Source: a virus
UHGV virus genome: UHGV-0129235
Direction: 5' to 3' (one strand)
DNA length: 11,070 nt
The notes below the pieces were generated by a model. The model ran no database searches. It saw nothing but the letters and a program-made list of their open reading frames with translations, and was not told the origin of the DNA. Positions within the stretch are counted from its first letter, which is position 1; each line of letters starts with the position of its first letter. The position numbers and the translations under genes are program-made. Shown one piece after another: positions 573 through 11,070 of the stretch.

Positions 573-1121
573 ATGGCGGTGATTGGTTATTGCAGGGTAT
601 CAACACAAGACCAGACTGTAGACAACCAGAAACTACAGATAGAGAAGGTTCACAAGGTCGATAAATGGTTTATTGATGAGGCTGTCTCAGGAGCTACAAA
701 GGCCACCAGCAGAGATGGTTTTAGAGACATGATGAACTATGTAAGGTGTGACGATACGTTAGTTGTGGTAGCTATTGACCGTTTAGGGCGTAATACCGTT
801 GATGTGCTCTCTAACGTGGAGTCACTACAGACTAAAGGTGTGAGGGTTGTTTCTCTACGTGAAGGTTTTGACCTGTCTACACCAATCGGTAAAGCAATGC
901 TTACTATGATGGCTGGTTTAGCTGACCTTGAAAAAGACCTTATCAGTGAACGTAGAAAGGCTGGTATTGAACGTGCTAAAGCTGAAGGGGTTCACATGGG
1001 AAGACCTGTAAAAGCTTCTTCAGAGGCTGTACAGATGCTTATTTCACAAGGTAAAACGAGGTTGCAGATTCAGGAAGAGCTAGGAATCTCTAGAGCAACT
1101 TATTACAGACTTGCTAAATAA
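573..1121 (+). CDS. Small serine recombinase, resolvase/DNA-invertase family
   Basis: 182-aa ORF; N-terminal MAVIGYCRVSTQDQ catalytic-serine motif, DRLGR motif, C-terminal HTH (LGISRATYYRLAK); SD aaggggg 4 nt before ATG. Confidence 0.9.
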   Translation: MAVIGYCRVSTQDQTVDNQKLQIEKVHKVDKWFIDEAVSGATKATSRDGFRDMMNYVRCDDTLVVVAIDRLGRNTVDVLSNVESLQTKGVRVVSLREGFDLSTPIGKAMLTMMAGLADLEKDLISERRKAGIERAKAEGVHMGRPVKASSEAVQMLISQGKTRLQIQEELGISRATYYRLAK

Positions 1122-1805: not shown

Positions 1806-2003
1806 GTGTCACATCCAATAATCAATGTCGGTCGTTATCATGGTGGTTCTGATGACTGGCGTACACCGTATCGTTTATTTCGTAACCTACACCGAGAATT
1901 TAGTTTCTCAATGGATGGTGCTGCAACTGAGCATGACGCATTGTTGCCACGGTTCACCGATGATATTCACAATCAATCATGGGTTGGTGAACGGGGTCTG
2001 TAA
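1806..2003 (+). pseudogene. N-terminal fragment of a phage Dam-type DNA N6-adenine methyltransferase (truncated remnant)
   Basis: 65-aa ORF with SDDWRTPYRLFRNLHREFSFSMDGAATEHDALLPRFTDDIHNQSWVGERG, matching the pattern D-x-W-x-TP...LF..L..EF.F..D.AA...NA....F...D.L.Q.W.G that I recall for phage Dam (Pfam Dam family); the expected downstream NPPYS catalytic region is absent in all frames. Confidence 0.4.
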
Positions 2004-2685
2004 AGATTGTTTAAGAAGTCGGTTTAGGGATTGGTAGATGATTCGGATGAAGCATCCTCATAACAATACCAATTAGAAGGTGGCTCTCCCTTTCTGGGGT
2101 TATCGCCTTGTATCTTAGTGAGTCCAGGAAGTTCTCTGTGAAGGGTCTTGTCAGTCCTTTATATTGGGTGATTACAACTTATTGAAAAATAAGAACTTTT
2201 AGAAGTTACTGTCAGATAGGTGAATACTTGATAGATACAGCTTTCTGGTTCTGTCAAGCTATTTTTTAATAGATAGCACAAAATGCTAAAGATACCCCTA
2301 TACCATCTCGTACAGGGGGTTTTGAAGGGAGTTTAACGGGGGTCTGTGTGGTTATCTGTTCTGGTCCTGTCCTTGAGGTCAAACGACCATTCACGACCAA
2401 ACAATCTGAACACGATAAACACTCTGACGATGAAATAGCGAAGTAATAAGCCTGCAATCAGCCCAACACCTCCACCAGCCCATACATCAGGTGACCCCAG
2501 CTCAGGAGGGAGATTTACCATTAAATTTCCTGTGTGCAATGCAATACCATGTGACATACATAGTTGATTCGGTTAGTTGGGCTTGTACCAACCCCTATCG
2601 AATAAACCTCATAGCCACGCCTTTATATTTTCCCTCTCTCATAAAACCATTATACCATAAATGTTAATAAAATGTTAAAAAATGC

Positions 2686-2714
2686 TTGACATTAGCCTTT
2701 GAAACTGCTAAGAT
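2686..2714 (+). promoter_or_regulatory. Sigma70-like promoter (TTGACA-17 bp-TAAGAT) for the four-gene operon
   Basis: Perfect -35 TTGACA at 2686-2691, 17-bp spacer, -10 TAAGAT at 2709-2714, followed by the motif ATTGTATATAT shared with the promoter at 4670. Confidence 0.5.
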
Positions 2715-2763
2715 TGTATATATAGTTAACAGGAAATTAACAATTACAAGGGCCAGCTTATGA

Positions 2764-3318
2764 ATGAACAACAAAGATTTTCAAAAATTTCTTGAAGAAT
2801 CCAAGAGACGCAACAGACACAACGGTTACAGCCACACAGACACCCCCACCAGCTACGAAGTCCCAACCTTTAGCAAATCCGAACGTAAGAACATTGAAGC
2901 GGTCATTCGTAGTATTACGCCACGAGACAGATTTATGCCAGCACGCAAAGAAAAAGAGAATACTTTAAAAACTTTCTTGATGGGCTTTGATTCTTACGAG
3001 CAATTACCGCCACGAATTGAAGATGTAATTATCGGTACTTGTCGCAGTTTTGGAAGGGATAACTATCACCGGAAAGTTTTCTATTTACTACGAAATCTTG
3101 ACAAAATTAGCTCAAGCACAGTAACAAATTATCTTCAGCGTCAAGCAACCAGGCTTAGCTATGAATTACCAAGCGATAAATATTGCGCTAACTTAGCCAC
3201 TATTTGCATGAAAGTTATTGAGACAATTAATCATCATGCGGAAGTGGGCAATATCAGCCTTACGATTAGTGAACCAGATTTCGAGTTTGACCCGTATTTA
3301 GTTACAGAGGAATTTTAA
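2764..3318 (+). CDS. Hypothetical protein (184 aa), first gene of four-gene operon
   Basis: Intact ORF directly downstream of promoter; abutted by next gene start (TAAATG); no family recognised. Confidence 0.6.
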   Translation: MNNKDFQKFLEESKRRNRHNGYSHTDTPTSYEVPTFSKSERKNIEAVIRSITPRDRFMPARKEKENTLKTFLMGFDSYEQLPPRIEDVIIGTCRSFGRDNYHRKVFYLLRNLDKISSSTVTNYLQRQATRLSYELPSDKYCANLATICMKVIETINHHAEVGNISLTISEPDFEFDPYLVTEEF

Positions 3319-3597
3319 ATGAATAAACACACATTAACCCGTATTTCAGAGGAAGCTTTTAACGGGCTTACCAGAATTAAACAAGCAACTAACTTACCTC
3401 ATCAAACTATTATGCAACTTGCAATTGCTAAAGAGGTCACTGAGTCGGATTTACTTAAATATCCAGTCTCTAAAGGTCGTAAGCACATCCGAATTAGTCA
3501 GGACGCTTTAGATACTTTGAAGGCACTTAACGGCTTTAAAATTGATATTGCCCGTCTATTGAGTCTTAAGATTCACAAGTTAGCGATGGAGGTTTAA
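3319..3597 (+). CDS. Hypothetical small protein (92 aa), possible DNA-binding regulator
   Basis: ORF with SD agagga 9 nt upstream; start abuts upstream stop; function not recognised (regulator assignment is a guess from size and a helix-like segment NLPHQTIMQLAIAKEV). Confidence 0.55.
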   Translation: MNKHTLTRISEEAFNGLTRIKQATNLPHQTIMQLAIAKEVTESDLLKYPVSKGRKHIRISQDALDTLKALNGFKIDIARLLSLKIHKLAMEV

Positions 3598-3812
3598 TGC
3601 TATGCGTTACCTTTGAATACCACACGGATAAAATGATTCGCCACATCTCCGACCTCCTGATTAAGGGAAACGGATTCGGTGACATCCATAACTCAAAAGA
3701 TATTTTCATTAAAGCCATTGGCCCAAATGAAGTACTGAAAACAGCAGTTAAACCGGAATGGTTTGAGCGTCACAAGATTGAATTAGGTTATTGGGGTGAG
3801 GAGGTTTTATGA
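3597..3812 (+). CDS. Hypothetical small protein (71 aa)
   Basis: SD ggagg 6 nt upstream; ATG overlaps upstream stop (TAATG), consistent with translational coupling. Confidence 0.55.
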   Translation: MLCVTFEYHTDKMIRHISDLLIKGNGFGDIHNSKDIFIKAIGPNEVLKTAVKPEWFERHKIELGYWGEEVL

Positions 3813-4096
3813 AACCTTGGCATGAAGATGTTAGACGATATTTTACAGAACACCTTATCTATGATGAATCCAGTGATTCCCTGTGCTGGTCTGATGGAGA
3901 GTCAGTCACGATAAATACCGACGACTACGGCAACAAAACATTTAATATAGGCCGATATACTTTCTACGTGAAATATGTTGTCTGGTTCCTTTATCATGGC
4001 TATCAATCCAACAAGCAAATTATCCATCGAAATGGTAACAGAGCCGATACCAGACCAAAAAATCTTATGCAAGTCCGAGACTTTAAGAGAAATTAG
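3809..4096 (+). CDS. HNH endonuclease-like small protein (95 aa)
   Basis: SD gaggagg 5 nt upstream; ATGA start/stop overlap; C-terminal YHGYQSNKQIIHRNGNRADTRPKNL resembles the HNH_3-type motif (hydrophobic-H-x-N-G-x-x-x-D-x-R-x-x-NL) of phage HNH nucleases. Confidence 0.5.
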   Translation: MKPWHEDVRRYFTEHLIYDESSDSLCWSDGESVTINTDDYGNKTFNIGRYTFYVKYVVWFLYHGYQSNKQIIHRNGNRADTRPKNLMQVRDFKRN

Positions 4097-4250
4097 AAAA
4101 ACAGCTTCTCAGACGCTCTCAATCGCATTCTAACGCAAAAAACTACCTTATTTTAGTGGGTAATACCACTGTACAGGCTACCCCTGAAAAAGACTGTTTA
4201 GCTCGTTACAGAGCGATTGAGGAGGTCTGGTAAAAAGGAGATTTTAAGAA

Positions 4251-4580
4251 ATGAGAGAATTAAACTTCCCACTACAGATTTTTATTGATACCGACACCGC
4301 CATGATGATTCAGGCTTTCGCTGATGTAGGTGTTAGCATTGACTTTGATAAGTTGTTAGAGTTAATGACTGATAATGCGGAAAGCATCTCTGACTTTATT
4401 CAGTCGGTGGAGTTTAACGAGCCTCGAATGATGCTACCAATTAAAGACAGCAACATGAAAAGATTGGTTATCGAGCAAACGAACAAATTCAGCGTTAGCC
4501 CTGAAAGATATCTCAAGGCAGCTATAGCAATTTTGTACGCTGACAATATTTTGGTGACGGATTCGAAGGTGGTGCATTAA
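4251..4580 (+). CDS. Hypothetical acidic protein (109 aa)
   Basis: ORF with SD aaggag 10 nt upstream; net acidic composition; no family recognised. Confidence 0.6.
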   Translation: MRELNFPLQIFIDTDTAMMIQAFADVGVSIDFDKLLELMTDNAESISDFIQSVEFNEPRMMLPIKDSNMKRLVIEQTNKFSVSPERYLKAAIAILYADNILVTDSKVVH

Positions 4581-4645
4581 TGGAATTGGTGATTATCTGT
4601 TTTGTATTGATTGGCATGATTGCAGGTGCATCTATTAAAGTATAA
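4580..4645 (+). CDS. Possible 21-aa hydrophobic single-TM peptide (MELVIICFVLIGMIAGASIKV), translationally coupled
   Basis: ATG overlaps stop of upstream gene (TAATG); almost entirely hydrophobic; too short for the ORF track; speculative. Confidence 0.25.
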   Translation: MELVIICFVLIGMIAGASIKV

Positions 4646-4669
4646 ATGTTACCAATCTGTTAAAAGCTG

Positions 4670-4698
4670 TTGACAAATAACCTTGAGCATGACATAAT
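4670..4698 (+). promoter_or_regulatory. Sigma70-like promoter (TTGACA-17 bp-CATAAT) sharing the ATTGTATATAT motif with promoter at 2686
   Basis: -35 TTGACA 4670-4675, 17-bp spacer, -10 CATAAT 4693-4698, immediately followed by TTGTATATAT. Confidence 0.5.
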
Positions 4699-4901
4699 TG
4701 TATATATGAGGATAGTCTTCTATCCGAAGTCTATAGGGAGAGCAATTCTCCTTGAATTAAAATATTAATCATCTCTACATCGATGATAACTATATTCTGA
4801 TTGGAAAGGTGCAATGCTTTTCGTCATGGCCTTTCAGTTCGGTCTGAGAGGTCATCTCGAAAAGTGCTTAATCATTCATTCATTGAACCCTTTACAGCTT
4901 T

Positions 4902-4930
4902 GCCCTAATCATGAGTTAGGGCTTTCTTTA
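4902..4930 (+). terminator. Terminator-like hairpin (GCCCTAA-7 nt loop-TTAGGGC + TTTCTTT)
   Basis: 7-bp perfect stem with U-rich tail; lies in the leader between promoter 4670 and gene 5145. Confidence 0.4.
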
Positions 4931-4998
4931 AGAGTTTTTAAACAGAGCTTTTAAAGAAAGTTTTTCCTGAAACTTCGTTAACGTTAAAGCAAACCTTC

Positions 4999-5034
4999 AA
5001 AGCCCTTCACAGATTATGTTTAGGGCTTTTTTCA
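4999..5034 (+). terminator. Terminator-like hairpin (AAGCCCT-15 nt loop-AGGGCTT + TTTTT)
   Basis: 7-8 bp stem followed by T-run; sequence-related to hairpin at 4902 (both contain TAGGGCTTT and a downstream AGCTTTTAAA). Confidence 0.45.
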
Positions 5035-5144
5035 GCTTTTAAAAAGCATACTTGGCAAACCACCTTTTAAGTCTCTTCTAAGTTTAGATAGGCTGTCAGG
5101 TGTGCTTTTTAAAAACTGAATATTACTTAGAAGAGGAAAATGAA

Positions 5145-5852
5145 ATGGAAAATCTATATATTAGCGGTAGAAAGGTTGATAGCTTCGGTGACTGGTCGCC
5201 ACAGACTGAACATCCAGCTATCACTATTCAGCGTAAAGAACACGATGAAAGAATTAAGCTTGAGCAATCGTTAAAGATGTCACCAAAGGTAATTTCCTTT
5301 GTGTCTCCTGAGCCTCAAGAAATGCCAGATATCTGCAAAAGTGAAGCACTATTTAATCTTGAGCGTGAATATTACCCACAGTTAAAAGCACAGCGTATTA
5401 AACTTGATGACGCTTACAGCAAAGTTACCCTGATGCAATCAGCTATTGAGCCGTCAGAATTTGAGATTCAGGATGAATTGTCACAGAAGCCGTATGTTTA
5501 CTTCACATACGAAGATAATGATGGTTTTGGTACTTTTCAAGAAAACGTCACAGACGTGATTAGTAGTCTTCCTGCTGGACATCGAATTGTGAAGATGGTT
5601 AAAGCTTCAAGAGGTGCTGGTCAGTTTATTTACATGACTAATAAGAGCGATGAAGAACTCTGTGAACTTGCCAGACAGAACATCTTGGCATCACGTAACA
5701 AGCAACTTGAAAATGTTAAGTTGTATCTCTCAAGAGAGCTTCAGGCTATGAAAGAGCTTGTGAAAGAATATGAAGATGCTAAGAAGATTGCTATGCAGGC
5801 TGATATTGAGCAGCTTACGAAGATTTCTCAGAAATATGCAAAGGCTATTTGA
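5145..5852 (+). CDS. Hypothetical protein (235 aa; C-terminal coiled-coil-like region)
   Basis: ORF; preferred start ATG 5145 (MENLYISG) with SD gaagagga upstream, rather than GTG 5100 of the ORF track; no family recognised. Confidence 0.6.
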   Translation: MENLYISGRKVDSFGDWSPQTEHPAITIQRKEHDERIKLEQSLKMSPKVISFVSPEPQEMPDICKSEALFNLEREYYPQLKAQRIKLDDAYSKVTLMQSAIEPSEFEIQDELSQKPYVYFTYEDNDGFGTFQENVTDVISSLPAGHRIVKMVKASRGAGQFIYMTNKSDEELCELARQNILASRNKQLENVKLYLSRELQAMKELVKEYEDAKKIAMQADIEQLTKISQKYAKAI

Positions 5853-8511: not shown

Positions 8512-9300
8512 ATGATTTACTCTAATCAGATTCGTTACAGTGGCAAAGATGGTATCTATTTCCACTTAAGAGATAATGTAGATGCCTTCTTAACCTTATC
8601 AGCTACTGAACAGATGGAGTTTGACAGCCCTATGCAGGTGACTACACAGAACATGCAATCAGGGCAAACCGTCACAGATAATGTGCAAAGAGCACCCAGA
8701 ACAATCACTATTAGTGGTGTCGTTGTAGTTGGTTATGAAGGAAGTTTATTACTAACTCGTCAGGGTCAATTAGTAGAAAACTTCATCGACACTCTGGAAA
8801 ACTGGCGTGACCAGAAGCAGATTATTTCGGTCATCTGTAAAGACGGTATCAAGATTGATGATTCCATTATTACGAGCTTTAAAGCCTCTAAAGATGTTAC
8901 TATCTCTAACGGTCTTCGTATCCAGCTAACTTTTCAGGAAATTAACTTTAAAGCTATTGTTGGTCAGACTGATATTTCTGCTGCGACTGGAAAGGCCGCT
9001 ACTACAAATGACGGTGGTGTGACCAGTAAGAAGAATGCAGGTAACGTGACCACTGAACGCAATAACGCGCCTATGCTATCGTGCAAAGAGCTAATGAGTA
9101 TTAACGATGTATCCGGTTACGCTCCAGCTATCAGAAATGATATTCTCGATGCTCAGATTAAATGCAATAAGGCTTGGAAGCTGGACTATTCAGACTTAAC
9201 AGAAGCTGAAAAAACCAACGTCACCAATGCTAACAGTAACGCTGGTCGGGTAGCTTCAAAGCTTAAAAAGTACTCAGTGAACCCTCACAAAAAATACTAA
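8512..9300 (+). CDS. Hypothetical protein (262 aa), possibly a minor/distal tail protein
   Basis: ORF with SD aaggag 6 nt before ATG 8512 (preferred over TTG 8491); position immediately after the tape measure and a weak pattern resemblance to small minor-tail proteins; function low confidence. Confidence 0.55.
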
Positions 9301-10940: not shown

Positions 10941-10991
10941 ATCTTCGGACTATGCTTATCTAAGTGGTTCATTGAACAGGAGAACAATGAT

Positions 10992-11070
10992 ATGAGTGTT
11001 AAGGCAAGAATACTAGTGCTTTATTATTCCATGTACGGACATATTGAAACGATGGCACGCGCAGTCGCTG
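10992..11070 (+). CDS. wrbA: WrbA NAD(P)H:quinone oxidoreductase, island-regenerated hybrid 5' end (partial, runs off window)
   Basis: [26 protein letters not shown]; from LVLYYS onward this equals the WrbA N-terminus as I recall it; SD aggag 10 nt upstream is supplied by the island. Confidence 0.85.
11013..11027. other. attR junction (island-host crossover region, shared core GTGCTTT at 11016-11022)
   Basis: ctagtgctttattat: island sequence up to the core, then wrbA codons YYSMYGH continue. Confidence 0.5.

Follow-up and report, generated by a model that had tools for sequence, protein, structure and literature searches.

Promoters of the extended -10 sigma-70 type, early promoters of virulent phages and promoters with sites for phosphorylated ArcA (ArcA-P) are the closest described relatives of the two promoters treated here. 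The minimal ArcA-P site is ATGTTAAAAA-N-ATGTTAAAAA with a spacing of 11 base pairs (bp) (PMC4173790), and in the PY promoter of the F-like plasmids an upstream TGTTAA-N5-TGTTAA element is needed for activation (PMC7303359). Our subject is an element of 11 nucleotides (nt), ATTGTATATAT, which occurs exactly twice, both times on the plus strand, in an 11,070-nt stretch of DNA, the virus genome record UHGV-0129235. This stretch is the window to which all coordinates refer; it corresponds to an island of about 10.5 kilobases (kb) of Escherichia coli, located between ymdF and wrbA and 99.7% identical to strain cM8a. The promoters that carry copy 1 and copy 2 of the 11-mer are designated P1 and P2, respectively. 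A preliminary description of this DNA had regarded the 11-mer as an operator or initial-transcribed element, through which one factor, possibly a small island protein, would co-regulate both transcription units. The explanation which we favour, with a probability of about 0.6, is that the 11-mer is not an operator and forms the end of a duplicated promoter cassette, and that any common input of P1 and P2 comes through conserved TGTTA boxes.

P1 and P2 agree with the extended -10 sigma-70 promoters in the distance between -35 and -10, in the A2 and T6 bases of the -10 hexamer and in the TG located one base before it (TGcTAAGAT in P1, TGaCATAAT in P2), the starts being predicted in our case. Like the early promoters of virulent phages, they combine a consensus -35 and an extended -10 with an upstream A-tract and an AT-rich discriminator. 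In the promoter scan they were the two best sigma-70-type matches on the plus strand of the window, and the -10 of P1, which appears in homologous elements as TAAGAT, TAGTAT or TAGGAT, always keeps A2 and T6. Local alignment of the two cassettes (coordinates in Table 1) gave 55 identical columns out of 76 (72%) and a score of 59, against 21.2 +/- 3.9 (maximum 38) in 1000 shuffles (z about 9.7). The common layout consists of ATGTTA-N5/6-TGTTAAAA, 4-5 bp, TTGACA, a 17-bp spacer in which C(T/C)TTGA and TGn are found, a -10 hexamer that has both A2 and T6, and finally the 9-mer TGTATATAT. The similarity stops at the 3' end of the 11-mer, that is at the predicted start, and the next 40 nt agree at 10 of 40 positions, which is the chance level. 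This architecture and its duplication are direct observations; P1 and P2 are accordingly read as paralogous cassettes and the 11-mer, probably, as their downstream end and not as a free-standing element.

The preliminary description was correct in placing both copies of the 11-mer at the end of the -10 hexamer of a TTGACA-17 bp promoter and across the predicted start. Exact matching and the promoter scan agree on this: the first two bases of each copy are the last two of the -10 hexamer, the discriminator follows, and the expected starts, about 7 nt past the -10 (2721/2722 in P1, 4705/4706 in P2), fall inside both copies. A repeated 11-mer alone is unremarkable in 11 kb, as at least two matches were obtained in 15 of 200 shuffles, and many other repeats of 11-13 nt are found in the same region. 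Its placement after both promoters is not explained by chance, because nine unconstrained positions agree (probability roughly 5e-6 to 9e-6). This exact identity at the same promoter position is an argument for the operator proposed previously, as is the fact that the island encodes a predicted DNA-binding protein. We nevertheless consider a single factor acting on both units through the 11-mer to be unlikely. No further copy with up to one mismatch was found on either strand of the window, relaxed searches gave nothing notable, and the symmetry search detected neither a dyad nor a direct-repeat partner, only simple ATATAT alternation. The element lies where RNA polymerase itself is positioned, and it contributes only about 2-3 nt to the predicted transcripts, so that it fits poorly to an initial-transcribed element as well.

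The 11-mer would rather be core promoter DNA, made up of the last -10 bases, an AT-rich discriminator and the start nucleotide, which probably serves easy melting and start-site choice for the host sigma-70 RNA polymerase. A second, overlapping promoter with TATATA as its -10 was considered and rejected: the matches at 2699-2726 and 4689-4716 are weaker and the downstream hexamers are not conserved in homologs. The 9-mer TGTATATAT also coincides with the middle of the LexA consensus, CTGTATATATATACAG, and as half of an SOS box, or as the site of another host regulator, it would link the promoters to a host stress signal. This possibility is close to negligible. Both sites have T in place of the essential C of CTG, an ACAG at the 8-nt spacing is missing (P1 has TTGT-N11-ACAG and P2 no ACAG), and the P2 allele TTTAATTAT has not even a half-site; the box CTGT-N8-ACAG was accordingly rejected, with TTGT at both sites and the second half-site missing.

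The variation of the 9-mer was surveyed in about 100 homologous elements from E. coli genomes, IMG/VR viral contigs and metagenome contigs: 12 E. coli loci, the viral-contig family members and 77 metagenome contigs, the last fetched with a pattern in which the 9-mer had no part. For the viral contigs a 16-base pattern lacked specificity and returned mostly chance matches, and longer patterns were used afterwards. At P2 the 9-mer was TGTATATAT in 47 homologs, TTTAATTAT in 44, TTTAAGTAT in 4 and GGTAATAGG in 4 (38, 35, 3 and 4, respectively, when only unique sequences were counted). At P1 it was TGTATATAT in 31 of 44 homologs, the others being single-base variants among which TGTCTATAT was the most frequent, and its conservation was no higher than that of the adjoining spacer and -35. 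When both promoters were considered jointly, TGTATATAT was present at both in 17 elements, TGTATATAT at P1 was combined with TTTAATTAT at P2 in 11, and no co-variation was seen. About half of the P2 homologs thus carry TTTAATTAT or TTTAAGTAT, and four GGTAATAGG, without a compensating change at P1. The preliminary description had itself named absence of the motif from homologous promoters as the observation that would refute the operator, and the operator loses most of its ground here, even though the P1 9-mer is frequently kept, TGTATATAT occurs at P2 on several distinct flanking backgrounds and a similar sequence follows the -10 of a third promoter in sister islands (see below).

The two frequent P2 alleles, TGTATATAT and TTTAATTAT, differ by three substitutions in five bases, while their flanks differ by at most one. 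In the divergent locus L013, TAAGATTGTATATAT is found at both promoters, an identity of 15 nt which includes the -10. Because the P2 alleles differ by such a cluster and L013 shares 15 nt, we infer from the sequences an occasional exchange between the P1 and P2 cassettes, and the identity of the two 11-mers in the window would then come from homogenisation of paralogous promoters. A more radical version is that the identity is only a by-product of a recent micro-conversion between similar promoters, with no function beyond AT-richness. The similar frequency of two P2 alleles separated by clustered substitutions, the longer identity in L013 and the 72% identity of the cassettes, which is enough for exchange, are all in line with it. 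It overlaps with our explanation, from which it differs only in denying any constraint, and the persistence of the P1 9-mer and of its sister-island relative across much divergence makes the denial rather improbable.

Conservation of the kind that is missing in the 11-mer was found in the boxes close to it. The arrangement TGTTA-N6-TGTTA has exactly three copies in the window, all of them at P1 or P2: boxes A and B at the former and box C at the latter. The pentamers were exact in 39 of 39 unique P1 homologs for box A, in 39 of 39 unique copies for box B and in 80 of 80 unique family copies for box C (158/158 altogether), with 7, 4 and 8 forms of the 6-nt spacer, respectively. Judged from the sequences, invariant pentamers with variable spacers are the pattern expected of a protein-recognition element. 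An operator should have fixed recognition bases and variable intervening bases at all promoters and in all homologs, and the TGTTA boxes have them; retention, co-variation and symmetry are all lacking in the 11-mer. The pattern of conservation and variation is an observed one.

Box A doubles as the -35 of a divergent promoter for the gene of a 62-amino-acid (aa) protein, therefore a protein bound to box A would control both directions. The -10 region of this divergent promoter (CCATTATACC) was invariant in 39 homologs. The 62-aa protein itself has one hydrophobic helix, and its gene stands divergently to P1 behind this near-consensus promoter. Box A is separated from box B by about 65 bp, measured between their centres. 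Sister islands (L217, L218, L219, L220) with a different left-hand gene set still keep box C, and they have a third promoter, TTGACA-atATGTTAAATAGATGT-TAAGAT-TGTAGTAT, whose spacer contains a TGTTA pair and which immediately precedes the gene of a 96-aa homolog of the 92-aa protein discussed below. As far as the arrangement of the DNA can tell, this is the classic layout of autorepression.

The boxes resemble ArcA-P sites in having at least two TGTTA pentamers in direct repeat, 11 bp from centre to centre; this is a likeness of sequence. Box A with its flanks, ATGTTAATAA-A-ATGTTAAAAA, matches the ArcA consensus at 19 of 20 positions (PMC4173790). The likeness to the ArcA-P sites of icdA P1 and PY lies in the flanking boxes, whereas the 11-mer does not fit the ArcA consensus. 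Unlike ArcA-P sites, the island pentamer also recurs about 25 times, as an array, in a phage terminal repeat.

A candidate binder is encoded in the operon behind P1. For the 92-aa protein the prediction is a DNA binder of the tandem ribbon-helix-helix type: its AlphaFold2 model contains the strand-helix-helix unit twice (E4-10, H11-24, H28-36; E54-60, H61-70, H77-91), with a predicted local distance difference test (pLDDT) value of 88.9 and a predicted template modelling (pTM) score of 0.81. Its best fold matches were DndE, AvtR and one chain from the relaxosome of the F plasmid, with template modelling (TM) scores of 0.5-0.6 and probabilities up to 0.99. The protein is comparable with Arc/Mnt, CopG, omega, TraY of the F plasmid and AvtR in the strand-helix-helix unit and in the location of its gene in a repeat-flanked operon. 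The 96-aa homolog of the sister islands (35% identity, E 2e-8) has, like the ribbon-helix-helix autoregulators, a repeat pair within the spacer of its own promoter. Unlike those autoregulators the 92-aa protein belongs to no sequence family, and its DNA target is a predicted one. A pentamer that is asymmetric and arranged as a direct repeat would suit a single-chain binder which is asymmetric too.

As the binder of the TGTTA boxes the 92-aa protein is our preferred candidate, at somewhat less than even odds. The host protein ArcA is an unlikely alternative: the binder may not be ArcA because of the array in the phage terminal repeat and because each island variant examined has its own ribbon-helix-helix protein gene. 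A phage factor, namely a protein that recognises this repeat at the phage terminus, within the terminal repeat, seems less likely again. According to our explanation a common regulatory input, if there is any, would be delivered by the TGTTA-N6-TGTTA boxes which stand upstream of both -35 hexamers and, in inverted form, at +5 to +21 of P1. The 92-aa protein could be an autorepressor of P1, bound to boxes A and B, and could reach P2 from box C; where transcription starts, which protein-DNA contacts are made and in which direction regulation runs are, in this scheme, what we infer. Co-regulation of the two transcription units is thus plausible. The co-regulation by one factor that had been suggested earlier holds in so far as the promoters are alike in their build and a common input is probable, though not through the 11-mer. 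Likewise, the suggested small island protein has found a concrete candidate in the 92-aa protein, though the 11-mer is unlikely to be its operator.

Several points weigh against this explanation. The P1 9-mer persists and the related TAAGAT-TGTAGTAT stands at the third promoter of the sister islands, where the ribbon-helix-helix protein has an identity of only 35%, so that a constraint on the 9-mer beyond AT-richness is possible. The clustered substitutions of the P2 alleles resemble a replacement event, and there could be selection on this exact spot of P2. Furthermore, with E about 0.05 the structural matches of the 92-aa protein have little statistical weight, and family profile searches assigned it to no sequence family.

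Table 1. Positions of the promoters, repeat boxes, genes and leader in the 11,070-nt window
Feature	Position	Strand	Description
Cassette P1	2649-2723	+	box A, A-tract, -35, 17-bp spacer with TGn, -10, AT-rich discriminator and start
Cassette P2	4634-4707	+	by local alignment with the P1 cassette
P1 core	2686-2714	+	TTGACA 2686-2691, 17-bp spacer with TGc, TAAGAT 2709-2714; 10/12
P2 core	4670-4698	+	TTGACA 4670-4675, 17-bp spacer with TGa, CATAAT 4693-4698; 11/12
11-mer, copy 1	2713-2723	+	-10 end, discriminator, predicted start
11-mer, copy 2	4697-4707	+	
Box A	2662-2677	+	TGTTAATAAAATGTTA; direct repeat, 11-bp period; about -60 to -45 from predicted P1 start
Box B	2727-2742	-	TGTTAATTTCCTGTTA; opposite in orientation to box A; about +5 to +21 of P1
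Box C	4647-4662	+	TGTTACCAATCTGTTA; placed relative to the -35 as box A
Divergent promoter of the 62-aa gene	2649-2678	-	TTAACA-18-TATAAT; 11/12, TG present
Small serine recombinase gene	573-1121		
62-aa membrane-type protein gene	2333-2521	-	annotated in a near-identical record
Four-gene operon	2764-4096	+	P1-driven; 184, 92 and 71 aa, 95-aa HNH endonuclease; stops and starts adjoining or overlapping
92-aa protein gene	3319-3597	+	predicted tandem ribbon-helix-helix
95-aa HNH endonuclease gene	3809-4096	+	
P2 leader	4708-5144	+	437 nt, non-coding; RNA fold -146.3 kcal/mol, z = -8.97
235-aa gene	5145-5852	+	behind the P2 leader; then 69-aa gene, tape measure gene, Dit-like baseplate gene
Tape measure and Dit-like baseplate genes	6178-9300		gene order as in Felix O1

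The phage with the TGTTA array is Felix O1, to which the island is also related in its tail genes. The Dit-like protein is 74.5% identical at the amino acid level to that of Felix O1-type phages, with about 92% DNA identity over 510 nt (8536-9045) to more than 200 Felixounavirus genomes, and the tape measure protein has 34% amino acid identity to that of Felix O1. Similarity of this kind indicates that sequence was exchanged recently with virulent phages. Between 12700 and 13600 of Felix O1 (L014) there are 25 copies of TGTTA on the same strand, with 11 bp as the dominant spacing (related records: L221, L222); one 500-nt bin has 18 copies, compared with about 1 per 500 nt elsewhere. The array region is a direct terminal repeat according to the annotation of phage UAB_69 and to records that start there, and the array is kept in the E. 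coli phage dune. It matches the island boxes in the pentamer and in the 11-bp phase. The array goes unmentioned in the genome paper on Felix O1, which gives no late-promoter consensus either. A promoter-like site with a TGTTA pair in its spacer (TTGACTgatTGTTAAGATGGTGTTAATAT) was noticed at 53472-53500 of Felix O1 (L014/L015), upstream of two small membrane-type open reading frames (ORFs) and past the tail fibre genes. The 121-aa ORF behind this promoter looks membrane-type and not like a DNA binder; the TGTTA binder may also regulate phage genes.

The early-type promoters of Felix O1 resemble those of the island in their upstream context, tTTAAAAAagNtg-TTGACA. Unlike the island promoters none of them carries TGTATATAT, whose single copy in the phage genome lies inside a gene, and the 9-mer was therefore rejected as a Felix O1 promoter element. 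No homolog of the 92-aa protein was found in Felix O1 by tblastn or profile search.

A further relation to the phage was found in the non-coding segment 1107-1657, after the small recombinase gene, whose homologous counterpart in Felix O1 is 13246-13823, where the terminal repeat has its right boundary (alignment score 147 against 80 +/- 10 in shuffles; core 1153-1193). Every island variant shares the conserved motif GATATTT..TTTGCAAAGGGGG with the phage. On this similarity the segment may imitate a signal for packaging or for the terminus. In the place of the phage TGTTA iterons the island has GT(T/G)AC at the 11-bp phase (1122, 1133, 1144) and an inverted GTCACA..TGTGAC. The first 572 nt of the window, in reverse orientation, gave a moderate score with the phage terminal repeat (112 against 66 +/- 9).

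The occurrence of the same pentamer and 11-bp phase in the array of about 25 copies, together with the inverted pairs of boxes A and B around some 50 bp of AT-rich DNA, also allows the TGTTA pairs to be taken as replication iterons. The 11-mer would then belong to the unwinding region between A and B, and a phage or island initiator that also recognises the repeat in the phage terminal repeat, for which the 325-aa helix-turn-helix protein of the sister islands might be considered, would fire island replication upon infection. We regard this as highly improbable: P2 has one pair only and still has the 11-mer, boxes A and B enclose a near-consensus promoter, the sister-island pair lies inside a promoter spacer, which is a typical repressor position, and no recognisable initiator was detected in the window-type island by family and profile searches.

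The island shares with phage satellites (PLE, the phage-inducible chromosomal island (PICI)-like element of Vibrio cholerae, with ICP1; PICI-type elements) an integrase and a fixed chromosomal site, ymdF/wrbA, and it has tail-gene homologs of a virulent phage and a segment of a terminal-repeat boundary; it is known here from its sequence alone. Unlike such satellites, it has no recognisable replication or capsid module in the window. A wider reading, tentative and on balance doubtful, is that TGTTA repeats which copy the terminal-repeat iterons tie P1, P2 and the third promoter of the sister islands to the life cycle of Felix O1-type phages, and that the island is an undescribed satellite of Felixounavirus, or a defence element against it, in E. 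coli, Salmonella and Citrobacter. In that case either a phage protein that binds the terminal-repeat iterons would switch the island promoters upon infection, or the ribbon-helix-helix protein of the island would bind its own promoters and the phage terminal repeat, with interference or hijacking as the result. The duplicated cassette would be the sensing and control unit in both, the 11-mer being merely a part of the core promoter.

Regarded alone the 11-mer is ordinary, core promoter DNA common to two paralogous promoters, and the value comes from its context, namely the phage-linked island and the TGTTA boxes that were found while the 11-mer was being checked. The cassette with its invariant TGTTA pairs offers a short, easily mutated handle on the silencing and switching of such elements, with the possible regulators narrowed to three: the ribbon-helix-helix protein of the island, the host ArcA and a terminal-repeat-binding phage protein. 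If the phage link is true, satellites of virulent phages, which have been studied so far mainly in Vibrio cholerae, would gain in this island a model in E. coli.

Relatives of the island are present in 489 of 5426 complete E. coli genomes, with 75-95% identity, and the family of the 92-aa protein was found in Salmonella, Citrobacter and E. albertii too. Literature searches for this island family retrieved no paper that describes it. The search of the island proteins with PADLOC and for defence systems revealed no known defence-system protein; searches of the small island proteins against Pfam, PHROG, NCBIfam and PADLOC gave nothing except a weak DndE match for the 92-aa protein. The sister islands have the right-hand module in common (109-aa gene, P2, leader, 235-aa gene, tape measure and baseplate genes), whereas their left-hand module differs in containing an adenine methyltransferase, the 325-aa helix-turn-helix protein and the 96-aa ribbon-helix-helix homolog. 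They carry other large serine recombinases and occupy other sites, inside a DUF72 gene adjoining yecN or between yciI and tonB. The large serine recombinase of the window (547 aa) has Resolvase, Recombinase and zinc-ribbon domains, and directly behind its gene is a wrbA start (10991-11070, plus strand). The island seems to be inserted at the extreme 5' end of wrbA, giving it a new start.

The only phage match of the 95-aa HNH endonuclease in the P1 operon is an HNH-type ORF of Felix O1 (30% over 57 aa, E 2e-6), and the place of its gene within the operon changes among island variants. The 109-aa gene sits between the P1 operon and P2. Its stop is overlapped (TAATG) by an unannotated ORF of 21 codons (MELVIICFVLIGMIAGASIKV; 4580-4645, plus strand), which ends 1 base before box C and whose product may be a small hydrophobic peptide. 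For the 235-aa protein no match was obtained in Pfam, PHROG or PADLOC, and its label as a transposase comes solely from the NCBI annotation.

The P2 leader, which could be a regulatory RNA or an attenuator, begins with 5' hairpins and contains two terminator-like hairpins (4902-4922 and 4999-5029) with an identical GCCCT..AGGGC stem, each followed by a T run. A long helix (5031-5057/5094-5120) comes next, and the ribosome-binding region of the 235-aa gene (5125-5135) pairs with 5073-5083. Since the length of the leader varies from 318 to 517 nt across the family, a consensus structure was recovered only in part. The Rfam search of the leader gave no family, only one sub-threshold chance match to a microRNA model. 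Pairing between the 5' end of the P1 transcript and the P2 leader (inverted repeat I10) was rejected, as the duplex energies in 40 elements were no better than those of shuffles (z +1 to -2.7). Between the 9-mer and a conserved 5' hairpin, GGGAGAGCAATTCTCC, the window has a 28-nt hairpin-forming insertion (GAGGATAGTCTTCTATCCGAAGTCTATA, 4708-4735) which occurs in a subset of elements only, every one of them with the TGTATATAT allele. The conserved hairpin has the compensatory variants AGAGAGAATTGCTCTCT and GGAAGAGCAACTCTTCC.

In the left part of the window a 65-aa ORF (1806-2003, plus strand) is the N-terminal remnant of a DNA N-6-adenine methyltransferase, which is intact in related islands; a near-identical record annotates it as a pseudogene. 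Near the left end of the island, at 180-330, there is a cluster of CTATATA-type repeats (gCTATATAcagggCTATATAacgATATATAg).

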